A DNA stretch of 10,004 nucleotides from Mariprofundus sp. Lineage in GTDB: Bacteria; Pseudomonadota; Zetaproteobacteria; Mariprofundales; Mariprofundaceae. The notes under the pieces are model-generated. The model was not told the origin of the DNA. It worked only from the letters and a program-made list of their open reading frames with translations, and did no database searches. The first letter of the stretch is position 1. Every line of letters starts with the position of its first letter. Location: positions 1 to 10,004 of the forward strand of contig JAUZRH010000017.1 in assembly GCA_030950555.1 (NCBI GenBank), written 5' to 3'. Both the position numbers and the translations under genes were made by a program. Of the stretch, positions 1-10,004 are shown piece after piece.

Positions 1-1
1 G

Positions 2-487
2 TTCACTGTATGGATGAACAGGGTGTTGCTACCGGCGCACTTGCCTGATCAGGAAGTGCCAGAAGTGCGAGATTTAATGGAGGTTGAAGCCATGCTAGCA
101 GAGCGTGTAAAAGAGTGGACCGTTGAATGGAAAGAGTCTGGCCTTCAGGAGGGCCTTCAAGAGGGCCTTCAAAAGGGCCTTCAAAAGGGCCTTCAAAAGG
201 GCCTTCAAGAGGGCCTTAAGGAAGGCATGCAGAAAGGCGTACAGAAAGGTAGGCAAGAAGGTCTACAGGAAGGCATACAGAAAGGTAGGCAGAAAGGTAG
301 GCAAGAAGGTCTACAGGAAGGTAGGAAAAAAGGTGAAACATTTTTACTTCTTAGGCAGTTGCAGTTGAAGTTCGGAAGATTAGATCAGGGTGTGATAGAT
401 AGAGTTGAATCGGCGGATGCTGATCTTTTACTAAAGTGGTCGGAAAGGATATTGACAGGCGCGAGCATTGAAGATGTGCTAAAGTAA
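2..487 (+). CDS. 5'-truncated Rpn/YhgA-like protein (recombination-promoting PD-(D/E)XK nuclease, 'transposase_31' family), C-terminal DUF4351-like tail; gene start lies upstream of the window
   Basis: The reading frame is open from position 2; the first in-frame ATG at 14 is not the real start. The C-terminal block 'ETFLLLRQLQLKFGRLDQGVIDRVESADADLLLKWSERILTGASIEDVL' matches the DUF4351 tail typical of Rpn/YhgA-like proteins. It is preceded by the (GxQE/K)n low-complexity linker this family often carries (EGRQEG-type repeats). Stop TAA at 485–487. Confidence 0.6.
   Translation, partial: FTVWMNRVLLPAHLPDQEVPEVRDLMEVEAMLAERVKEWTVEWKESGLQEGLQEGLQKGLQKGLQKGLQEGLKEGMQKGVQKGRQEGLQEGIQKGRQKGRQEGLQEGRKKGETFLLLRQLQLKFGRLDQGVIDRVESADADLLLKWSERILTGASIEDVLK
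140..331 (+). repeat. In-frame tandem array of 16 x 12-nt units (consensus ggccttcaaRag, degenerating to ggYRKRcaRRaa) encoding (Gly-x-Gln-Glu/Lys)16
   Basis: Directly visible. Units 1–6 are near-perfect (ggccttcaggag, ggccttcaagag, ggccttcaaaag x3, ggccttcaagag); units 7–16 are diverged. A 26-nt higher-order repeat 'ggtaggcaagaaggtctacaggaagg' occurs at 248–273 and 296–321. The repeat phase matches the ORF frame, giving GLQE/GLQK/GRQE/GIQK. Confidence 0.9.
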
Positions 488-647
488 TAAGCTTAGACTT
501 ATCGTTCGCTCATTTGATTATGAGGTTTGGATATTCTAAAACAAGACTATGTGATGGAAAGTTCAAAGATATTGGGACCTCTGATATTTTTAGAGCGTCA
601 GATTGCTGAGTTTTGTATTTAACAGAGAAAACATTAGCCACTGATAC

Positions 648-816
648 CCTAGGAGCCAATTGCAAAACTCTGGGTGGATGAGCGGCAATCCCACTTTGAG
701 TCCATTTTTGAGGTGGAATGAGGTGTATGGTGGTTCCATGGAGCGAACACCAGCGCGGGTTGGGCCAAAGTGGGGCCGCCGATCGCCGCTCACGAGTTTT
801 GCAATTGGCTCCTAGG
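648..816. mobile_element. MITE-like small non-coding repeat element (~169 bp) bounded by perfect 23-bp terminal inverted repeats
   Basis: The left terminus 'cctaggagccaattgcaaaactc' (648–670) is the exact reverse complement of the right terminus 'gagttttgcaattggctcctagg' (794–816). The interior (653–793) recurs at 9866–10004 with ~3 mismatches. It has no convincing coding capacity; the overlapping ORFs 510..884(-), 590..793(-) and 718..900(+) are short, lack an RBS and look like artefacts. Confidence 0.7.
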
Positions 817-899
817 TCACCTTCTTTGCCGCAAGCGGCATTCACCTTGTTCCACAACAACCACGAATTAACGGCATCCTTCACTAGCTATAAAAAATA

Positions 900-928
900 G
901 TTGACGCTTTACGTTGCCTCAGCTGAAA
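900..928 (+). promoter_or_regulatory. Candidate sigma70-like promoter (-35 TTGACG 900–905, 17-bp spacer, -10 TGAAAT 923–928)
   Basis: Hexamer spacing is read from the sequence. No obvious downstream gene, apart from a weak 65-aa ORF at 1098, so the call is speculative. Confidence 0.2.
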
Positions 929-981
929 TATTTCTCATTATCTTCCGTAAGCCTAATGAATCACGGGCGTTTTTTGTTTAT

Positions 982-1026
982 CCCTCACCCCAACCCTCTC
1001 CCTCCGGGAGAGGGTTGGGGTGAGGG
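982..1026. repeat. Perfect GC-rich palindrome forming a 21-bp-stem hairpin with a 3-nt loop (ccctcaccccaaccctctccc-tcc-gggagagggttggggtgaggg); REP-like element or transcription terminator/insulator
   Basis: The exact reverse-complement arms are visible. A T-run (gggcgttttttgttt, 965–978) lies upstream and AT-rich sequence downstream. It sits between the rpn-like gene/MITE and the operon. Confidence 0.6.
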
Positions 1027-1498
1027 AATTAACTATTTGGCGAAGCATTTTTCATGCTTTTGTGGAAAGCCTTCATGTGGAAACTAGTAAATGAAGAATG
1101 CCGGATATTAATCTTCTGAACTACACTAAAAATGAGCGAACGATGCGCTTAGATCTTGCAAAACAGTCAATGCCAAGTAGTCGAATTCATTCCGTAAAGG
1201 GTGTTTTGCATGATCTGGCAGACACTCTGTACCAATTTCTTGCTGTACGGTTGCTATCACTCATGTTGTTGCGTTTAGGGCCGACGAAAAAATAAATCAT
1301 CCACGTGCTGGTATATAAGCGTTGCCACAGAGTTGCTACTAAAGGCAGTAGGCTATCGCGCCCATTCTTAGGCGCTTGATTTGGCGCCTTGAATCCAACA
1401 ACTATCCGGAGCATAACCTGGATACTTTATTCTTTCTGTGGCCCTAAGCAAAAGCTTGCATGCTGCCCAAAGGATGTGCATGATGTGGTTTATGCATA

Positions 1499-1533
1499 TT
1501 GATATTCGTTGATGTGTGCATTTGTTATACGCT
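1499..1533 (+). promoter_or_regulatory. Candidate promoter and operator region for the NfeD–flotillin–AAA+ operon (-35-like TTGATA 1499–1504; weak -10 candidates TTGTTA/TACGCT 1522–1533)
   Basis: An AT-rich segment 40–75 nt upstream of the 1573 start. The -10 match is poor and the assignment tentative. Neighbouring 'GATGTGCA/TGCAT' motifs repeat at 1473, 1482, 1494 and 1511. Confidence 0.25.
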
Positions 1534-1572
1534 ATCACGCCAGTGAAGATTTTCATCTCAAGGAAATAAGTC

Positions 1573-2229
1573 ATGGATGATTTTTTGGTCAATATAAGCA
1601 GTTTTCCAACGGTTATTTATACCACATCTTTGGTGGTTGTAATCGGCTATTGGCTATTGGCTATCACGGGCACGTTTGACCTTGATTCTTTCGATGTGGG
1701 CGTAGATATAGACGTGGATACTGACGTAAACAGCTTAGGCGGCATGGCGGGCTTACTCACCACCTTAGGTTTAACGGGTGTTCCGATCACCATCGTCATC
1801 AGCCTCTTATTGCTTAATGCTTGGATTAGCTGTTATTTTCTTAGCCTATTTGTCCCTACCTTTCCTCAGTTTATCTTATTCATACAGATTACCATTCATA
1901 TTGTCATAGCTATTGTCAGCTTTATCGTTTCGATACTATGCACCGCAACCATGCTTCGGCCACTAAGAGGCTTGTTCCGAAAAGTACATCAGCTACCAAA
2001 GTCGGTGTCTTTGCTAGGAGCGACCTGTCGCATCAGAAGTAGTCGCGTGGATGATCTGTTTGGTGAAGCAGAGTGTCAGTATGAAGGAGCGAGTCTCATT
2101 ATAAAAGTACGGACAACGGGCAATGACACGTTCAGTGCTGGGGATCGCGTGGTGTTGATTGAGCATGATGAAGGGAATGATTTTTTTAAGGTGATTAGTG
2201 AAGAAGCCTTTAAAAAGCATTTAATATAG
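1573..2229 (+). CDS. YqiJ/NfeD-like inner-membrane protein (DUF1449-type: N-terminal TM helices, acidic D-x-D cluster, C-terminal NfeD-like OB-fold β-barrel); usual partner of SPFH/flotillin proteins
   Basis: Strong SD: AGGAAA at 1561–1566, 7–8 nt before ATG 1573. Three long hydrophobic segments (aa ~12–32, ~58–95, ~100–125). Acidic motif 'FDLDSFDVGVDIDVDTDV'. C-terminal 'GATCRIRSSRVDDLFGEAECQYEGASLIIKVRTTGNDTFSAGDRVVLIEHDEGNDFFKV' fits an NfeD C-terminal β-barrel. Immediately followed by, and apparently translationally coupled to, a flotillin gene, as in the E. coli yqiJ–yqiK arrangement. Confidence 0.75.
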   Translation: MDDFLVNISSFPTVIYTTSLVVVIGYWLLAITGTFDLDSFDVGVDIDVDTDVNSLGGMAGLLTTLGLTGVPITIVISLLLLNAWISCYFLSLFVPTFPQFILFIQITIHIVIAIVSFIVSILCTATMLRPLRGLFRKVHQLPKSVSLLGATCRIRSSRVDDLFGEAECQYEGASLIIKVRTTGNDTFSAGDRVVLIEHDEGNDFFKVISEEAFKKHLI

Positions 2230-2240
2230 GAGTATAAGTG

Positions 2241-4328
2241 ATGGAATTATTATTACCAATTTTAACGTATGGTGGCATTATCTTGGGCTTAATTATTGCT
2301 CCTTTGATGGTCTTTAGCGCGTTTTATAAAAAAGTACCCCAAGGCTATGCACTCATCGTGAACGATATGTCATCTAAACCCAGGGTACACTTTACTGGTG
2401 GGCTGGTGTTGCCCGTTATTCATAAAATGGAAGTGATGCAGATTTCATTGATTACCCTAGAAATTGACCGTAAATCCAATGATGGATTGATTTGTAAGGA
2501 CAATCTGCGGGCCGATATTACCGTGGCATTTTACCTCAGGGTGAACGAAACCCGGGATGACGTACTTCGAGTAGCTAAGTCGATTGGTGTCGATCGAGCT
2601 TCGGATAAAGATGCGGTGGATGAATTATTTAGTGCCAAGTTCTCCGAGGCATTAAAAACGGTGGGTAAGAATATGATGTTTCTTGACCTATTTGAAAACA
2701 GACTTCTTTTTAGAGAAAAAATTATTGAGGTCATAGGCAATGATTTGAATGGTTATGTGCTAGAAGATGTCGCCATTGATTATCTGGAACAAACGCCCAA
2801 ATCCAAACTCGACCCGAATAATATTCTTGATTCAGAAGGCATCAAAAAAATCACTGAAATCACGGCTATTCAGAATATTCAGACCAATCGTCTGGAGAAG
2901 GATGAGCAGTTAGCCATTACCAAAAAGAATGTTGAAACTCGTGAAGCTATGTTGGCTTTAGAGCGGCAGCAAATTGATGCGGAATCGAAACAAAAGCGTG
3001 AAATAAAAACGGTTCAGGCGCGGGAAGAGGCGGAGACCAAAAAGGTTCAAGAAGAGGAGCGGCTTAAAGCGCAGCAGGCCGAGATTGAAACGGATGAACA
3101 ACTTGAAATCCGTAGTCAGGTTAAACTGCGGCAGGTGGAAATAGCAGAACAAAACCGTAAACGCGCTATCGTGATCGAAAAAGAAAAGGTTATTCGGGCG
3201 CAGAAGATGGAAGAAGTCAATCGCCATCGCGAAGTGGAATTAGCGGTGATCGAAAAAGATAAAGCACTCGAAGAAGAAAAGAAAATCATCGCCCAGATTA
3301 TCAGCGAACGCATTGCGGTGGATAAGAAGGTCACTGAAGAGGAAGAGCGAATCAAAGAGGTGAAAGAGGTCTCCGAAGCCGATCGCCTGAAACAGGTACT
3401 GATTTTAGGGGCCGAGGGCGCAGCTCAGGAAGAGCTGGTGCGTGCTGTTGTGCGTGCTGAGGCCGATGAAAAGAAGGCCATCCATAAAGCCCGTGAAATT
3501 AACGTCATGGCACAAGCTGAATTAGAGGCCGCATCGAAAAAAGCAGAGTCCGCCAAAAAATTAGCCGAGGGTTCACAGGCAACCGCTGCTGCTCCGGGTT
3601 TGGCTGAGGCACGGGTCATGGAAGCAAGAGCGGATGCCAAAGAGAAAGAGGGGCTTGTTGAAGCGCGCGTACAAGAAGTGAAAGCCGATGCCAAAGAGAA
3701 GGAAGGTGTTGCCGAGGCACACATTCTAGAAGCCAAAGCAGATGCCAAAGAGAAAGAGGGTGTCGCGGAGGCAAATATTCAGCAAGCCAAAGCTATCTCC
3801 GCTGAAAAAGAAGGCTTAGCACAAGCGAGGGTACTCGAAGAGAAGCTATCCGCCGAAGCGCGTGGTAATGAGGAACTGGGCAAGGCTCAAGCTGTGATCG
3901 AAAAAGAAATAGGCATCAATAAGGCCGAAGTTCTGCGTGAAAAAGGCAAGGCTGAAGCGGATGCCTTGGTTGAGAAGTTTGCCGCTATGAACAATATGAA
4001 TAAAGAGTCCCGCGCGTTCGAAGAGTTCCGCTTGAATTTGGAAGCGCATTTGCAGGAAATTATGGCATCCATTGCGGCTAATAAAGACATTTCAAGCGAT
4101 CAAGCCAGTGTCTTAGCTGCCGCGCTTCAACAAGCGAATATCGATATCGTCGGTGGTCAGGGCGACTATTTCGACAAACTCGCTAAAGGCATGGGGGCAG
4201 GCAATGCGGTCAACGGTTTCATTGAGAAAAGTCCCATTGTTCAAGCCCTGATGGAAAAGCTGCTGGGTGGTAGTAGCACGATGCCGACCAGCCTTTCTAA
4301 ATCAGATCATCATGATGTAACGGGGTAA
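2241..4328 (+). CDS. Flotillin-like SPFH/band-7 family protein (YqiK/FloT-like), 695 aa from ATG 2241; N-terminal TM anchor, SPFH domain, extended coiled-coil 'EA-repeat' flotillin region
   Basis: RBS AGGAG at 2228–2232, 8 nt before ATG 2241 (the in-frame GTG at 2238 is too close to it). N-terminal 'LLLPILTYGGIILGLIIAPLMVF' is a TM helix. The SPFH-domain block YKKVPQGYALIVN…VIHKMEVMQISLITLEI…LRADITVAFYLRV is characteristic. The C-terminal part is rich in E/A/K heptads with four tandem 18-aa repeats (xAKADAKEKEGVAEA), typical of flotillins. Stop TAA 4326–4328. Confidence 0.9.
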   Translation: MELLLPILTYGGIILGLIIAPLMVFSAFYKKVPQGYALIVNDMSSKPRVHFTGGLVLPVIHKMEVMQISLITLEIDRKSNDGLICKDNLRADITVAFYLRVNETRDDVLRVAKSIGVDRASDKDAVDELFSAKFSEALKTVGKNMMFLDLFENRLLFREKIIEVIGNDLNGYVLEDVAIDYLEQTPKSKLDPNNILDSEGIKKITEITAIQNIQTNRLEKDEQLAITKKNVETREAMLALERQQIDAESKQKREIKTVQAREEAETKKVQEEERLKAQQAEIETDEQLEIRSQVKLRQVEIAEQNRKRAIVIEKEKVIRAQKMEEVNRHREVELAVIEKDKALEEEKKIIAQIISERIAVDKKVTEEEERIKEVKEVSEADRLKQVLILGAEGAAQEELVRAVVRAEADEKKAIHKAREINVMAQAELEAASKKAESAKKLAEGSQATAAAPGLAEARVMEARADAKEKEGLVEARVQEVKADAKEKEGVAEAHILEAKADAKEKEGVAEANIQQAKAISAEKEGLAQARVLEEKLSAEARGNEELGKAQAVIEKEIGINKAEVLREKGKAEADALVEKFAAMNNMNKESRAFEEFRLNLEAHLQEIMASIAANKDISSDQASVLAAALQQANIDIVGGQGDYFDKLAKGMGAGNAVNGFIEKSPIVQALMEKLLGGSSTMPTSLSKSDHHDVTG
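3606..3821 (+). repeat. Four tandem 54-nt (18-aa) in-frame repeats inside the flotillin coiled-coil region
   Basis: Units 3606–3659, 3660–3713, 3714–3767 and 3768–3821 share 'ga(g/a)gc…gatgccaaagagaa(a/g)ga(g/a)gg…' and encode EARVMEARADAKEKEGLV / EARVQEVKADAKEKEGVA / EAHILEAKADAKEKEGVA / EANIQQAKAISAEKEGLA. Confidence 0.85.
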
Positions 4329-4348
4329 TGAGCAGGTAAAGCTATAAT
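4315..4348 (+). promoter_or_regulatory. Possible internal promoter in the flotillin–AAA+ intergenic gap (perfect -10 TATAAT at 4343–4348; poor -35)
   Basis: The hexamer 'gctataatc' is visible. No good TTGACA-like box 17 bp upstream, so this may be a chance match. Confidence 0.2.
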
Positions 4349-4414
4349 CGAGAAGCGTAGGCGGTGGATGCAACACCCTACGTTTGAAAGCGAACTTCAT
4401 GGCAGGGGCTAGAC

Positions 4415-7400
4415 GTGACCGATCAAATTGAACATACAACGATAGCCGAACAGGCCGTTGCTGAGGGTGGTGCGTATGAGCTGATACGTCAGCGTTTAGT
4501 GGCGCAACAGCAGGCATTGGAAAGCCTCATTGGCGACATCAACCACCAGCGTCAGGATGAGTTTGGTAGTACCGAGATGAAAGTGCTCGGGCGCATGCGT
4601 TTGAGAACTGAAAACAACTGTCAGGCGCAAGATTTGGTGCTAGTCGGTGAATATGTGCTGTTTGCTTACAACGTGCATATAGGACTGAGAAAAGAGACGC
4701 GCATTGAAGATGTGCTGGCTCTTTACACGCTGGTAGAACAAGTGGATTCATACGATTTACGCTCCATTGACATTAAAGACTCTTTTTTGGCTGACCCGCG
4801 CTTCCAAAGCGATTTTCAGGAACTCTATGCCTATTACAAGGATACATCGTTATCCCAGTTGGTTTTTAAACATAACAAGTTAATGGCATCCTTCCAGATT
4901 GGTGAAAAATTAACAGATGTTCGTGTCTTTCGCTGGGAAGTCTCCGATGATGGTCAACGTGTTGATTATATCGACAACCGTGGCGAACGCGATCTCCGCT
5001 TGCCAGCCAGTCACGACTTTACATGGGTGCAATGCCAGCGCGACGATGTGGTGGATGGGCGTAATCCGCACATTAATATTTTGGACACCCTGTTTGTGGA
5101 TTCATCGCGTGGTGATATTACGATCAAGGTGGAAGATAATACCCACGTTGGACTCGGGATTTATTCTGAACCCGTGCAAGAAAAAAATCAGGCACTGGAT
5201 GATGCTGAATTTTATTACGCTGACTTAAATCAGCTTATTCTATTAAAAATAAAACCCTATCAAGAAGAAAACTACCGCTACCTGTTGTTTAATCGGTATA
5301 ACCAGCAGGTACAACGTATCGATGCCATCGGTGATTCCTGTGTTCAACTGCCCGAAGGTCACGGCATTATTTTTCCTGGTGGCTATTATTTAACCACGGG
5401 TGAAATGAAAACGTTCGAGGGTCAGCTCGATCACTTGCTTTATAAATGTTCCATGCGTGCGCCTAATGGTGAGGATGTGCTGTATGTTTTTTACCATCCT
5501 GAATCGAATATTATCGTCATGTATGGCTATAATATTATTGAAAAATCATTGCAAAATCCCATCATTGGTCATGGCTATGGCTTTTATAACGATGGGCGCA
5601 TGATTATTTTTTATGCCGATGATGAACCCAAACGAGTGCATCCCTTGCAGATTTGGCAAACACCCTATTGCAACGAAATGCATGCTAACGCACAAGCTAT
5701 ATCGCATAGCTTTTATGGCAAAATTGGCAATGCCGAGCTGGTTCGAGGTATCTCCGAGCTGTATAGCATAAGTAGAAGCATGCGCTTAGCGCATGTGTCA
5801 TCAAGCCACTATCACCAGCTTAGCCAAGCTTGTAGCAAGATATTTGATACTTATTACTGGTTAGATTCACCTGAGCTACAGTCTATTGGTAAGCTACTGC
5901 GTGAGGTGGCTAGTACCGCCGAGCTGGTGATTGATGAGTATGAAAAGGTTGAAAGTATCCGTGCTCAATCGACTCAAGCATTGATCGATGCTGAGGCGAA
6001 ACAACTAGAAATCATGCGTCAAATAAGACCCGATAGTTGGCACGACCCTCAGACCTTTGTTGATGGACTATTCAGCATAAGACAACATCGCGGTCACCTG
6101 ATGAGCATCCAATCGTATCGCTATATCGATACCGATAAGATAGCCCAGCTTGAGGCGGACATCACAGACCTAGAATTGGATTTAAATCAGCAAACGGTAC
6201 GCTTTTTATCTTCTGAAGGAGCCCTTAGCAGCTATGATAAAGTACTGGATCGCGTTGCCACTGAACGCCTGAAATGCACATCTAAGGCTGAACTTACTCC
6301 GCATCTGGAAGCACTTCAGCAGTTAGCAGCATCGCTAGATTTGATTGCCGAAATGATGGCTACCCTCAAGGTGGAAGATGCGACCGTACAAACGCGCATT
6401 GTTGATGCCGTTTCCGAACTTTATGGTCGCCTGAATCAACAAAAAGCTGAATTAGAACACCAACGTAAAACGGTCGGCAGTGTCGAAGCTAAGGCGCAAT
6501 TTTCGGCGCGACTCAAGCTGCTTAACCAAAGTATTCACAACGCACTCGCCATGTCGAGCACGCCAGCTAAAAGTGATGAACAGTTTTCCAGACTGTTGGT
6601 GCAGATGGAAGAACTTGAAGGTGAGTTTGGTGACTACGAAGACTTCATTGCTGATGTGATGAAAAAACGTGAAGAGCTATTTGATACCTTTGAAGCACAT
6701 AAACAGCGTTTAATGGATGCGCAGCAACGCAAGGCACAATCACTCGCCAGTGCAGGCGAACGCATCTTGCAAAGTGTGCAACGGCGGGTGAAACGTTTTT
6801 CCAGCCAAGATGAATTAAACACCTTTTACAGTGCCGACAGTCTGGTCAGGAAGATCAACGAGATTATCGAAAAGTTAAGGGCGTTAGATGATAGTGTCCA
6901 AGCTGAAGACCTTGATGCACAATTAAAATCCATCAAGGAACAGTCCATTCGATCCTTGCGCGATAAAAGTGATCTGTATGAAGCGGGTGGTCAGGTCATC
7001 AAACTCGGCCCACGGCACAAGTTTTCGGTCAATACCCAAGCGTTGGATTTAACCATTTTAGCGAAGGATGGTGAACTGTTTATCCGCCTGACAGGCACCG
7101 ATTATTTTGAAGCCCTCCATAACGAGGCTCTTGATACCATGCGTGCCTATTGGTCGATGGAAATACCTTCGGAAAGCGATCAGCTTTACCGTGGCGAATA
7201 TCTTGCCTATAGCATCTTAAAAGCCGCAGAAAATAATCAAGATACGCTCAACTGGGAAGCGTTAAGCAGTGCTACGGCAGATCTAAACATCATGCTTAAA
7301 CTGGTCGCAGGCTTTGCTTCGCCGCGTTATAAAGAAGGCTACGAAAAAGGTATTCACGATCATGATGCCAGTTTAATTTTGCAAAAAATAGTACCCGTTT

Positions 7401-9685
7401 ACGAAACAGCAGGCAGCTTCAAGTACTCACCTGCGGCGCGTGGATTGGCGGCAATCTACTGGGCAAACACGCAAAATGAAGCGCTACAAAAGCTATGGCC
7501 GCAACGTGCCAGAAATGCAGACCAAATGGCCACAGTATTGGCTGATCGTAAGGCAAAACAGATCCTGAGCCATGAAATAGCCAGTGATATGACAGCATTT
7601 ATGACCCATCACCAACTGCCCGAAGATAAACGCCTGCTCATGAACGCCAGTGAGTATTTAACCGATGAGTTGGCGCAAGAGCGCGTTAGGTTTGCCACCA
7701 CCAAATATGCGCGCTATCTATGCGATGCATTCATCACCCATCTGAAGACGCATAATATCTGGCGTGACTACCAAAAATCATTGGATGACATGAAGGGGCT
7801 GGTGGGCAAACGCTGGGCGCTGGCAGAAAGCTGGTTGACGGCCTTTATTCGGTCACAGAAAAAAGGGGAATATACAAGTTTTGTCGCTGAAGCCATTGGT
7901 ATTTTAAATGCAGAACAACGCATCGACCGCTTGGATCGCGAGAGCGACGTACAACTCACCCTTGAAGGCTTGATGGGTACGCACGATAAGATTGAACATC
8001 GCCAACTGACCCTTCAACTCGACCAGTTCCTGGATAACAACAGAACCCACCATGAGCAGGTGATCCCCGCTTACGAACATTATGTGCAAACGCGCCGTCA
8101 GATGATGCATGAAAAGCGCCAAGCTTTGCGGCTTGAGACATTCAAAGCCAAACCCCTCGCATCATTTGTCCGCAACAGGCTCATCAATGAAGTTTATCTA
8201 CCACTGATTGGTGATAACCTAGCCAAGCAGATCGGCACCGTTGGCGACAAAAAACGTTCGGACTTAATGGGCTTGCTGCTCATGATTTCACCACCAGGTT
8301 ACGGTAAAACCACTTTAATGGAATACGTAGCCGACCGACTGGGGCTGATTTTCATGAAGATCAACTGCCCCGTCATTGGTCACGCCGTCACCTCGGTGGA
8401 TCCACTGCAGGCCGATAATAGTGCTTCCAAACAGGAGCTGGAGAAACTGAATCTAGCACTGGAAATGGGCAACAATGTAATGTTGTACCTTGATGATATT
8501 CAACACACCAACAGCGAATTCCTGCAAAAATTCATCTCCTTATCGGATGGCACACGGCGTATCGAAGGGGTGTGGAAACAACGCCCTAAAACCTACGATA
8601 TGCGAGGTAAAAAATTCTGCGTCGTGATGGCAGGCAACCCCTATACCGAATCAGGCGAAGCCTTCCAGATCCCCGATATGCTGGCGAACCGTGCCGACAT
8701 CTACAATCTGGGCGATGTATTAAGCGGCAAAGAGGCGGTGTTTGAGCTGAGTTATATCGAAAATGCCTTAACCTCTAATCCCGTGCTGGCACCGTTGGCG
8801 ACACGCGACATGGCTGATGTCTATAAATTTCTCGACATGACCGAGGGTGTCACCGTAGCAAGCACTGATCTATCGCACCCCTACAGTTCCGCCGAGATCA
8901 AAGAAATTGTCGATGTGTTACACAAAATGAAGGCCATTCAGCGCGTGATATGGAAGGTCAATAAGGCCTACATTGCCGCCAGCGCACAGGATGATAAATA
9001 TCGAACCGAACCCATTTTCAAGCTACAGGGATCGTATCGGAATATGAATAAAATGGCAGAAAAAATATCGGCAATCATGACCAAACAGGAGTTAATTCAG
9101 CTAGTGGATGACCACTATCAGGGCGAATCGCAATTACTCACCACAGGCACCGAAGCGAATCTACTTAAACTGGCTGAAATCCGGGGCTGCATGCATGAAC
9201 AACAGCAGCAACGCTGGACGCAAATCAAAGCGGACTTCATGCGTAACAAAGCCATGGGTGGTGACGATGCCGATACAGGCGCCAAAATCGTGGTGCAACT
9301 CAATGATCTGGTGACCAGTATCAAAGGCTGGCGTGGGAGCATTGAAGCAACGCGCATGGAAGAGCATGAACCGATCCACCAAGAGTCGATAACGAGCAGA
9401 AATTACAACGATAAGGTATTGACCCATATTGCCAAAGCGATTGATCAACTGGTCGATCATCTCAATACAACCGCCGAGAAAGAATGTTCACTACATGCGG
9501 ACAAGCTGTCACCGGATAAACTGGTCGATTTACTGGACAATACGCTGCAACCGTTGGTAAAAATTATGAACGGAAAGCTGGATTTAGACTTAGGTACGCA
9601 CAGAAACATGTCAGACATCAACCGTAAACTGGATGCCATTAGCAAGTTAGTAAAAGTAGAAATACCAAGGAATAAACCGAGGTAG
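4415..9685 (+). CDS. Giant (1756-aa) multidomain protein: N-terminal β-rich domain of unknown family (~aa 1–430), long α-helical/coiled-coil central region (~aa 450–1250), C-terminal MoxR/AAA_5-like AAA+ ATPase domain (~aa 1270–1480) plus a ~280-aa C-terminal extension; no TM segments
   Basis: A single uninterrupted 5.27-kb ORF. GTG 4415 is the first start codon after the in-frame stop TGA at 4385, with an AGGGG SD-like box at 4403–4407. AAA+ motifs: Walker A 'ISPPGYGKTT' (nt 8291–8314), Walker B 'VMLYLDDIQH' (nt 8480–8500, DD rather than DE), sensor-1 and MoxR-like 'CVVMAGNPYTESGEAFQIPDMLANRADIY' (nt ~8620–8703). Stop TAG 9683–9685. Confidence 0.85.
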   Translation: MTDQIEHTTIAEQAVAEGGAYELIRQRLVAQQQALESLIGDINHQRQDEFGSTEMKVLGRMRLRTENNCQAQDLVLVGEYVLFAYNVHIGLRKETRIEDVLALYTLVEQVDSYDLRSIDIKDSFLADPRFQSDFQELYAYYKDTSLSQLVFKHNKLMASFQIGEKLTDVRVFRWEVSDDGQRVDYIDNRGERDLRLPASHDFTWVQCQRDDVVDGRNPHINILDTLFVDSSRGDITIKVEDNTHVGLGIYSEPVQEKNQALDDAEFYYADLNQLILLKIKPYQEENYRYLLFNRYNQQVQRIDAIGDSCVQLPEGHGIIFPGGYYLTTGEMKTFEGQLDHLLYKCSMRAPNGEDVLYVFYHPESNIIVMYGYNIIEKSLQNPIIGHGYGFYNDGRMIIFYADDEPKRVHPLQIWQTPYCNEMHANAQAISHSFYGKIGNAELVRGISELYSISRSMRLAHVSSSHYHQLSQACSKIFDTYYWLDSPELQSIGKLLREVASTAELVIDEYEKVESIRAQSTQALIDAEAKQLEIMRQIRPDSWHDPQTFVDGLFSIRQHRGHLMSIQSYRYIDTDKIAQLEADITDLELDLNQQTVRFLSSEGALSSYDKVLDRVATERLKCTSKAELTPHLEALQQLAASLDLIAEMMATLKVEDATVQTRIVDAVSELYGRLNQQKAELEHQRKTVGSVEAKAQFSARLKLLNQSIHNALAMSSTPAKSDEQFSRLLVQMEELEGEFGDYEDFIADVMKKREELFDTFEAHKQRLMDAQQRKAQSLASAGERILQSVQRRVKRFSSQDELNTFYSADSLVRKINEIIEKLRALDDSVQAEDLDAQLKSIKEQSIRSLRDKSDLYEAGGQVIKLGPRHKFSVNTQALDLTILAKDGELFIRLTGTDYFEALHNEALDTMRAYWSMEIPSESDQLYRGEYLAYSILKAAENNQDTLNWEALSSATADLNIMLKLVAGFASPRYKEGYEKGIHDHDASLILQKIVPVYETAGSFKYSPAARGLAAIYWANTQNEALQKLWPQRARNADQMATVLADRKAKQILSHEIASDMTAFMTHHQLPEDKRLLMNASEYLTDELAQERVRFATTKYARYLCDAFITHLKTHNIWRDYQKSLDDMKGLVGKRWALAESWLTAFIRSQKKGEYTSFVAEAIGILNAEQRIDRLDRESDVQLTLEGLMGTHDKIEHRQLTLQLDQFLDNNRTHHEQVIPAYEHYVQTRRQMMHEKRQALRLETFKAKPLASFVRNRLINEVYLPLIGDNLAKQIGTVGDKKRSDLMGLLLMISPPGYGKTTLMEYVADRLGLIFMKINCPVIGHAVTSVDPLQADNSASKQELEKLNLALEMGNNVMLYLDDIQHTNSEFLQKFISLSDGTRRIEGVWKQRPKTYDMRGKKFCVVMAGNPYTESGEAFQIPDMLANRADIYNLGDVLSGKEAVFELSYIENALTSNPVLAPLATRDMADVYKFLDMTEGVTVASTDLSHPYSSAEIKEIVDVLHKMKAIQRVIWKVNKAYIAASAQDDKYRTEPIFKLQGSYRNMNKMAEKISAIMTKQELIQLVDDHYQGESQLLTTGTEANLLKLAEIRGCMHEQQQQRWTQIKADFMRNKAMGGDDADTGAKIVVQLNDLVTSIKGWRGSIEATRMEEHEPIHQESITSRNYNDKVLTHIAKAIDQLVDHLNTTAEKECSLHADKLSPDKLVDLLDNTLQPLVKIMNGKLDLDLGTHRNMSDINRKLDAISKLVKVEIPRNKPR
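8230..8900 (+). other. AAA+ (MoxR/AAA_5-type) ATPase domain inside the giant CDS
   Basis: Motif order and spacing follow a MoxR-type P-loop domain: Walker A PPGYGKTT, Walker B hhhhDD about 60 aa downstream, then 'AGNP…E…G…P..L.NR' about 45 aa after that. Sequence reading only; no profile search was possible. Confidence 0.6.
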
Positions 9686-9705
9686 ACAAAATAATTCGGT
9701 GGGGT

Positions 9706-9737
9706 ACGCTTGCGCAGCGTTTGGCGTTTCGTTTTTG
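9706..9737 (+). terminator. Weak candidate rho-independent terminator after the giant gene (5-bp stem acgct/agcgt, loop tgcgc, followed by T-rich 'ttggcgtttcgtttttg')
   Basis: Inverted repeat at 9706–9720 and U-rich tail at 9721–9737, about 20 nt after the stop codon. The stem is short, so confidence is low. Confidence 0.3.
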
Positions 9738-9865
9738 ATGCTTGATTGCTGATGATGAATGGTTTGGGATAATTCATACGTCTATTGTTGTGCGCTGTTA
9801 AAAAAAACATCAATATTCCTATTGTTTACGTTTTTTTCCCGCAATCAGGTATTCCCGAAGACTCA

Positions 9866-10004
9866 GAGCCAATTGCAAAACTCTGGGTGGATGAGCGGCA
9901 ATCCCACTTTGAGTCCATTTTTGAGGTGGAATGAGGTGCATGGTGGTTCCATGGAGCAAACAACAGCGCGGGTTGGGCCAAAGTGGGGCCGCCGATCGCC
10001 GCTC
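9866..10004. mobile_element. Second copy (truncated by the window end) of the MITE-like element seen at 648–816, same orientation
   Basis: 9866–10004 aligns with 653–793 with about 3 mismatches (t>c at 'gaggtgYatgg'; 'gagcgaacacc' vs 'gagcaaacaac'). The outer 5 nt of the left TIR differ: 'actca' versus 'cctag'. Confidence 0.7.

Follow-up and report, generated by a model that had tools for sequence, protein, structure and literature searches.

A YqiJ-flotillin-DUF3686 gene trio in Mariprofundus as a probable abbreviated membrane-stress operon

We analyzed a 10,004-nucleotide (nt) stretch of DNA, hereafter the window, from Mariprofundus sp. (GCA_030950555.1, contig JAUZRH010000017.1, positions 1 to 10,004, forward strand). 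It contains three co-directional genes, which encode a YqiJ/NfeD-like membrane protein, a flotillin/YqiK-type SPFH protein, and a giant soluble AAA+ protein. The trio is a single conserved unit, with synteny in more than 70 gammaproteobacterial loci as well as in Bacteroidota, Actinomycetota, and Deinococcota. On balance, we consider the locus to be probably an abbreviated membrane-stress operon, in which the giant AAA+ protein would be recruited to a YqiJ-like/flotillin scaffold and remodel assemblies of flotillin and PspA. The three genes are:

1573-2229, forward strand: gene 1, YqiJ/NfeD-like inner-membrane protein of 218 amino acids (aa)
2238-4328, forward strand: gene 2, flotillin/YqiK-type SPFH protein, 696 aa when read from a GTG
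4415-9685, forward strand: gene 3, giant soluble AAA+ protein of 1756 aa, GTG start

The probable start of gene 2 is the ATG at 2241 (695 aa), which is preceded by AGGAG at a distance of 7 nt. Genes 1 and 2 are separated by 8 nt with the GTG start or 11 nt with the ATG start, and genes 2 and 3 by 86 nt. An initial annotation of this DNA, made from the sequence alone, had described a co-directional trio with gaps of 11 and 86 nt. The open reading frames (ORFs) agree with this description, the 11-nt value holding for the ATG start. A consensus scan revealed no terminator-like or sigma-70-like site in either intergenic gap. The initial annotation had also held that the genes are very likely co-transcribed, and this is supported by the P. 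aeruginosa orthologues, which are co-transcribed by reverse transcription PCR (RT-PCR; Wallart 2024, PMC10948618) and whose primers we mapped as described below. Searches for the sigma-54 consensus returned 4 matches, compared to 6.7 expected by chance, none of which was upstream of gene 1. Rfam returned zero matches. As the 3' region of the giant gene folded no better than shuffled sequence (z = 0.55), no terminator is claimed downstream of it.

To delineate the gene neighborhood, one genome per species was scanned, yielding 80 loci at 46-81% identity; the total number of loci sampled was 80 + 27 + 5. Adjacency was counted only in the 69 loci with at least 3 kb of upstream DNA. A flotillin-like gene lay directly 5' of the giant gene in 64 of these and was separated from it by one or two inserted genes in 4 more, while a single locus had none. 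Whether the giant gene keeps a flotillin-like neighbor across genomes had been left as a question by the initial annotation, and these counts show that the linkage is far beyond chance. Gene 1 lies directly 5' of the SPFH gene and on the same strand, and a homologue occupied this position in 71 of the 80 loci. Median gaps across loci were 43 nt between genes 1 and 2 (8-11 nt here) and 89.5 nt between genes 2 and 3.

The arrangement extends to distant phyla and replicons. In Hymenobacter, the order is 'molecular chaperone Tir', PspA, a DUF1449 protein, a flotillin-like protein, and the giant protein. Streptomyces has a small protein followed by a 'flotillin family protein' and a 'DNA repair ATPase', and Deinococcus carries a trio of 198-aa, 652-aa, and 1736-aa proteins. 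In Vibrio campbellii the flotillin and giant genes are followed by PLD. Plasmid pQBR103 encodes PspA, a rhomboid, yjfKLMC-like genes, an NfeD-like protein, an SPFH protein, and the giant protein. Some variation within the unit was also seen. A few relatives (L001, L042, L050, and L076) have one or two extra genes between the flotillin and giant genes; in L001 these are two ORFs of ~310 aa at 8036-9936 of that locus. L033 and L076 have a flotillin gene that is either split or present in duplicate.

Profile searches placed the giant protein in a family. Pfam assigned DUF3686 (PF12458; E 2.5e-183) to aa 36-481, aligned to positions 3-448 of the 448-position profile, DUF7902 (PF25472; E 1.7e-21) to aa 603-685, and an ATPase domain to aa 1288-1411, for which AAA_5 was the best model (E 2.8e-7, with AAA at 3.4e-5). 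The protein thus carries full-length DUF3686, DUF7902, and a C-terminal AAA+ domain. By these matches, the giant protein belongs to a named but uncharacterized family, called 'DNA repair ATPase' by NCBI, although the initial annotation had been unable to place it in any characterized one. More than 4793 homologues were found at E <= 1e-5. The best 120 share the architecture, and the named ones among them are mostly 'DNA repair ATPase', 'AAA family ATPase', or 'MoxR-like ATPase', the last being a label that JGI applies to some family members. A full scan of 1.84 billion cluster representatives with aa 1-500 returned 692 clusters at E <= 1e-3, of which 229 reached E <= 1e-30; full-length representatives were mostly 1600-1930 aa, with the DUF3686 region N-terminal. 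Hydropathy analysis revealed zero transmembrane segments. Together with the Pfam matches and AlphaFold2 models, this upholds the original description of a soluble protein in which an N-terminal domain is followed by a long helical region and then by an AAA+ domain at the C-terminus. A phmmer search of the PDB returned only P-loop-level matches to RuvB and Rix7. We found no papers on DUF3686, PF12458, or 'DNA repair ATPase' in connection with flotillin, and no study in which the giant protein was purified or deleted alone.

The operon itself had been proposed as an undescribed system. It has in fact already been described. In P. aeruginosa, the bac cluster PA3732-PA3729 was reported to encode a 16-kDa protein, a PspA-like protein, a 23-kDa transmembrane protein, and a 76-kDa protein (Mace 2008, PMC2587700), and was later extended to bacABCDEF (PA3732-PA3727; Wallart 2024, PMC10948618). 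The latter study obtained RT-PCR products over every bac junction, proposed a sigma-54 site, and found that a bacA mutant contains 6-13-fold more BacB-F. PA3731 is induced by osmotic shock (PMC2587700, PMC10948618), and bac mutants have biofilm, swarming, rhamnolipid, and virulence defects (PMC2587700, PMC10948618).

To connect this cluster to the window, the bac RT-PCR primers (Wallart 2024 supplement) were used, with the bacD/E forward primer searched against metagenome contigs. This primer mapped to the C-terminus of flotillin-like genes. On one 66%-GC, P. aeruginosa-like contig (L085), the bacE/F primers mapped as well, to the C-terminus of the giant gene and to the next gene. Here bacE is a 1746-aa ORF with DUF3686, DUF7902, and AAA, 52% identical over its full length to the giant protein of the window, and bacF encodes a PLD-like protein that is followed by yaeQ and recJ. 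Because the primers map to the matching genes on this contig, we equate genes 1-3 of the window with bacC, bacD, and bacE. By full-length similarity, the giant protein is the orthologue of BacE/PA3728. The order, sizes, and sequences of genes 1-3 agree with those of BacC (23 kDa, transmembrane), BacD (76 kDa), and BacE. The window differs from the bac operon in that bacA (DUF2170/YjfI), bacB (PspA), bacF (PLD-like), and a sigma-54 promoter were not found in it. The published bac papers assign no domains to BacC-F.

Comparative genomics has independently described this operon (Ravi et al. mSystems 2024, PMC11237479; preprint DOI 10.1101/2020.09.24.301986) as a combination of CesT/Tir-PspA, band-7/flotillin, YqiJ/YuaF, and a novel AAA+ ATPase. 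That study also described abbreviated operons, composed of flotillin, YqiJ/YuaF, and sometimes the AAA+ ATPase, with PLD optional, and it proposed a function in the ATP-dependent remodeling of membranes (PMC11237479). The window genes constitute the same trio, the architectures of the three proteins are the same, and our own neighborhood analysis reproduced the operon. In comparison, the published account is brief and purely computational, and it is given without Pfam names, motif analysis, or a link to bac. A tblastn search of the window did not find the CesT/YjfI (DUF2170)-PspA dyad that stands beside the trio in the full form of the operon. As the dyad families are missing from the window, we assign the locus to the abbreviated form.

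The identities of genes 1 and 2 were assigned by profile comparison. The gene 1 protein contains three transmembrane segments by hydropathy (aa ~13-35, 72-90, and 101-119), followed by a probable C-terminal soluble beta-rich domain. It had no Pfam, NCBIfam, or PADLOC match even at E <= 10. Alignment of its family profile to E. coli YqiJ gave an hhalign probability of 88.6% (E 2.6e-6), spanning the transmembrane and OB regions. The Hymenobacter counterpart, named a DUF1449 family protein by NCBI, was a weak match (21.5% identity). Searching the PDB with HMMER profiles built from the family alignments of genes 1 and 2 yielded nothing useful.

The gene 2 protein consists of an N-terminal transmembrane segment (aa 8-26, the only one by hydropathy), an SPFH domain, and a long coiled coil rich in A/E/K, and it ends in a conserved region. 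It likewise had no direct Pfam, NCBIfam, or PADLOC match even at E <= 10. Its family aligned with E. coli YqiK across the SPFH region (aa 16-469) with an hhalign probability of 99.9% (E 1.3e-34). Its full-length identity to the 'SPFH domain-containing protein' of pQBR103, for which Band_7 exceeds the Pfam threshold, is 46%. These two matches place gene 2 in the SPFH (Band_7) family. As controls, E. coli YqiK matched Band_7 and Flot, while YqiJ matched YqiJ_N and YqiJ_OB. Only 2 of 25 gene 2 family members reached Band_7, and 1 of 25 matched Flot (PF15975; E 0.0015); the YqiK alignment stops at aa 469, before the Flot region of YqiK, and A/E-rich repeats can be seen in the gene 2 sequence. Since so few members reach Band_7 and homology emerges through profile comparison, we regard gene 2 as a divergent flotillin subfamily. 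Three in-frame 54-nt tandem repeats at 3596-3757 encode 18-aa A/E/K-rich units (…AEARVxEAKADAKEKEG…), which suggests that coiled-coil length varies by repeat number.

The pairing of an NfeD/YqiJ-like membrane gene with a downstream flotillin gene recalls E. coli yqiJ-yqiK and B. subtilis yuaF-floT. The original assignment of the first two genes to a YqiJ/NfeD-like plus flotillin pair stands, with clear homology to YqiK and weaker homology to YqiJ. Unlike the E. coli pair, the window proteins have diverged beyond the reach of the Pfam models Band_7, Flot, and YqiJ, and no giant ATPase gene follows yqiK in E. coli.

The giant protein was modeled with AlphaFold2 in two parts, aa 1-1200 (mean predicted local distance difference test score, pLDDT, 75) and aa 1181-1756 (mean pLDDT 64). 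The following parts were assigned:

4580-5659, forward strand: predicted beta-propeller, the DUF3686 core, aa 56-415 (AlphaFold2, Foldseek)
5711-7912, forward strand: helices and coiled coils, aa 433-1166 (AlphaFold2; DUF7902 from Pfam)
8162-8854, forward strand: AAA+ ATPase core, aa ~1250-1480 (Pfam AAA_5/AAA, AlphaFold2, Foldseek)
8288-8314, forward strand: Walker A SPPGYGKTT, aa 1292-1300, within the AAA+ core
8477-8497, forward strand: Walker B VMLYLDD, aa 1355-1361, with D-D in place of D-E
9551-9619, forward strand: conserved C-terminal tail motif PLVKIMNGKLDLDLGTH, aa ~1713-1735, after a variable linker

A long N-terminal helix (aa 20-50) precedes the predicted propeller. Residues 56-415 were modeled as ~28 beta-strands, mostly at pLDDT 70-90, with several stretches of aa 190-261 below 50. 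From this model, the region may form a propeller of ~7 blades. Foldseek matches of aa 1-1200 in the PDB included Sec12, Vps18, the clathrin terminal domain, prolyl oligopeptidase, and WD40 proteins (E 3e-5 to 3e-3), and the propeller prediction agrees with that of Ravi et al. 2024 (PMC11237479). The top two Foldseek hits of the 1200-residue model were dynein heavy chains, which were set aside as long-helix matches with TM-scores (template modeling scores) of ~0.1. Very long helices and coiled coils occupy aa 433-852, including DUF7902, and are followed by a small beta unit (aa 879-901) and a helical domain (aa 926-1166).

Within the AAA+ domain, the model showed a beta-hairpin before the sensor-1 strand and no clear helix-2 insert, at low model confidence. 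Asn1408 is the probable sensor 1. Foldseek matches of the C-terminal model were spread roughly level over RuvB, Skd3/ClpB, MCM, ClpA/X, and NorQ/CbbQ (E ~1e-4). The 'MoxR-type' label first given to this domain is therefore not established. Features shared with the MoxR family (RavA, CbbQ, NorQ) include AAA_5 as the best Pfam ATPase model and NorQ/CbbQ among the Foldseek matches. In contrast, the giant protein is five times as large, its Walker B is D-D, and it lacks a VWA partner gene, none being present among the recurrent neighbor families scanned; RuvB, Skd3, and MCM scored level with NorQ. As the quality of the C-terminal model is modest, we left the AAA+ clade unassigned.

Three stretches of the ATPase were near-invariant across phyla: ISPPGYGKTT, Y(L/V)DDIQH, and MAGNPYTE(S/T)G...IPDMLANRAD(I/V)(Y/W)NLGD. 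Walker A and Walker B are the same in Pseudomonas, Hymenobacter, and Deinococcus, while the Streptomyces Walker A has GKTP. The tail motif is kept in the gammaproteobacterial long forms, including that of P. aeruginosa (PLIKVMDRKIDVDLRTH), and is missing in Hymenobacter and Streptomyces, whose forms are shorter. The tail is a candidate docking peptide.

Genes that recur around the trio point to the envelope. PspA_IM30 was present in 45 of the 80 loci and DUF2170/YjfI in 44, mostly as a pair directly 5' of gene 1. Clustering of flanking ORFs and Pfam annotation identified further recurrent neighbors, namely a TFIIB-type Zn-ribbon (31 loci), rhomboid (22), PLD-like (10), and PHA_gran_rgn (9), with the PLD/HKD gene often 3' of the giant gene. 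The evidence favors the envelope-stress reading, which had been one of the functions first suggested for the locus. On pQBR103, a Pseudomonas megaplasmid (L111), the trio is fused at 85-98 kb with a complete cluster of the yjf type, made up of PspA, rhomboid, DUF2491, DUF350, DUF1190, and a glutathionylspermidine synthase-like gene. This arrangement unites two PspA-CesT operon classes that were kept separate by Ravi et al. (PMC11237479).

A working model can be drawn from these parts. The YqiJ-like protein, with three transmembrane segments, and the flotillin, with one, would build an SPFH scaffold at the cytoplasmic face of the inner membrane. The giant protein presumably oligomerizes through its AAA+ domain, like its structural neighbors, and would be recruited to the scaffold through the beta-propeller, the coiled-coil arms, or the conserved C-terminal tail. 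Under envelope stress, ATP binding and hydrolysis by the giant protein might then drive assembly, remodeling, or recycling of the flotillin scaffold and of PspA (ESCRT-III-type) polymers. In this genome, PspA would need to be encoded elsewhere.

The proposed analogues are FtsH inside HflK/C cages and Vps4 on ESCRT-III. HflK/C-FtsH pairs an SPFH scaffold with an AAA+ machine at the membrane. Vps4 and ESCRT-III combine an AAA+ ATPase with an ESCRT-III-type protein in membrane remodeling, and PspA is also of the ESCRT-III type. Unlike these systems, the giant protein has no protease domain, transmembrane anchor, or detected MIT domain. Its AAA+ domain falls outside the classical FtsH/Vps4 clade by Foldseek ranking, and FtsH and Vps4 are offered as functional analogies. 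More tentatively, the DUF3686 protein might be the missing bacterial ATP-driven partner of PspA/ESCRT-III and flotillin membrane repair, an independently evolved functional analogue of Vps4, or of FtsH in HflK/C cages. As an AAA+ oligomer docked on flotillin, it would use propeller-tipped coiled-coil arms to catch and recycle PspA polymers or scaffold subunits, and its invariant D-D Walker B would make it a slow, switch-like remodeler.

DNA homology to the nearest relative (L114/L115) was limited to 1558-9693 (81.4% identity) and one upstream block, with the other flanks unrelated. The giant protein of this relative is 87% identical to that of the window, and its module sits between mutS-glnD and an insertion sequence, radC, and a penicillin-binding protein (PBP) gene, a core context. 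The upstream block is:

1449-1501, forward strand: 53-nt conserved block upstream of gene 1, detected by homology, candidate promoter/operator of the module

This block is ~85% identical to its counterpart 5' of gene 1 in the nearest relative and is also present in L001. It contains repeated TGTGCAT/ATGCAT motifs and a weak promoter-like arrangement, TTGCAT-N17-CATGAT. Farther upstream, a perfect 22-nt inverted repeat lies in non-coding DNA 5' of the operon (981-1027; TCCCTCACCCCAACCCTCTCCC / GGGAGAGGGTTGGGGTGAGGGA, 3-nt loop). It could be a repetitive extragenic palindromic (REP)-like hairpin or the terminator of an upstream unit.

The trio is bracketed by repeats at 653-791 and 9866-10004 that are 98% identical over 139 nt. 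The left copy has 51-nt inverted arms (648-698/766-816, 78% complementary), consistent with an element of ~170 nt resembling a miniature inverted-repeat transposable element (MITE); the second copy runs past the window end. The MITE copies reported by the initial annotation are thus real repeats. Zero copies were found in the fetched related loci L001-L107, L114, and L115. An ORF at the left edge (2-487), open to the window start, contains only a C-terminal DUF4351 domain by Pfam, a C-terminus that we take to fit an Rpn-type protein. In the C-terminal part of this ORF, a 12-nt tandem repeat at 128-283 (GGCCTTCAAGAG-like, at least 9 copies) encodes a (GLQE/GLQK)n tract, which gives spurious FliH and Yae1_N matches. 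The mobile-element debris of the window looks incidental.

One alternative reading is that the flotillin/YqiJ scaffold is the sole target of the giant AAA+ protein, which would load, size, or take apart the SPFH cage or process an enclosed client, with PspA an optional neighbor and not a substrate. HflK/C-FtsH offers a precedent for an SPFH cage enclosing an AAA+ machine. The trio also occurs without PspA in cis in the window, its nearest relatives (L114/L115, L001, and L003), Streptomyces, and Deinococcus, and flotillin-giant adjacency (64/69) is commoner than PspA presence (45/80). However, PspA-YjfI lies directly upstream in most loci, even in distant phyla such as that of Hymenobacter, and all six Bac proteins are co-regulated in P. 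aeruginosa (Wallart 2024, PMC10948618). We therefore regard a scaffold-only role as rather unlikely.

A second alternative, raised by the initial annotation, is that the trio is an anti-phage defense or abortive-infection module on a variable island. The MITE-like repeats and the DUF4351-bearing, possibly Rpn-type ORF end in the flanks would suit an island, as would homology to the nearest relative that ends at the module edges apart from the 53-nt block. A PLD/HKD gene, whose fold is also used by nucleases, often follows the giant gene, and PADLOC returned a weak match to IetA (E 4.4e-4, 17.8 bits). This match covers only generic AAA+ residues, however, and genes 1 and 2 had no match in PADLOC-DB 2.0. 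The conserved neighbors are envelope-stress genes, and the module sits in core context in the nearest relative and beside yaeQ and recJ on the P. aeruginosa-like contig. Only 13 of 72,556 plasmid records carry the giant gene, and judging by size we take most of these records for chromids or megaplasmids. The ATPase sequence is very highly conserved between phyla, which we consider atypical of fast-evolving defense genes. A defense role is thus unsupported and, in our estimate, very improbable. Least credible of all is that the giant protein is a DNA repair ATPase whose adjacency to flotillin is functionally meaningless. This would follow the Pfam description of DUF3686 ('ATPase involved in DNA repair') and the NCBI product name, and could draw on weak P-loop-level matches to RuvB. 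Yet no paper that we found supports the name. The RuvB matches are far under family cut-offs (17.6 bits vs 282) and are common to Clp, MCM, and NorQ, no DNA-binding or nuclease domain was detected in the giant protein, and its linkage to membrane proteins is kept across phyla.

Several observations weigh against a membrane-remodeling role for the trio. The published phenotypes cover bacA and bacB, not bacC-E. The PspA, DUF2170/YjfI, Zn-ribbon, rhomboid, and PLD families left no trace in the window by tblastn. Because of this, the PspA link is only assumed at this locus. In the Methylococcales, the flotillin pair is missing from 10 kb upstream of the giant gene in Methyloprofundus (L021), the sole clear exception to synteny, and a second locus (L028), with 1.2 kb upstream only, had no flotillin/YqiJ match; a third (L026), with 255 nt upstream, was uninformative. 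The AAA+ model is mediocre, with the P-loop region below pLDDT 50. Finally, all members examined, which come from four phyla (including L085 and L109-L112), have D-D instead of D-E in Walker B (Y-L/V-DDIQH). This motif recalls the LIDDIQ of DnaA, and it may indicate that hydrolysis is slow and switch-like and that the protein is not a processive motor.

By itself the window offers little novelty, being one more PspA-less copy of the trio. Three points are contributed by this analysis and not by the literature: the bac operon is connected explicitly with the operon of Ravi et al. and with Pfam DUF3686, every examined member has a D-D Walker B, and a tail motif at the C-terminus is conserved. 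Ravi et al. raised the question of how PspA homologues that have no AAA+ ATPase associated with them regulate their assembly (Ravi 2024, PMC11237479). The giant protein is the obvious candidate to explain how the PspA/ESCRT-III polymers and flotillin scaffolds of bacteria come to be assembled and recycled where a Vps4-like ATPase is lacking. In P. aeruginosa, the operon of its orthologue is tied to biofilm formation, swarming, rhamnolipid production, and virulence.

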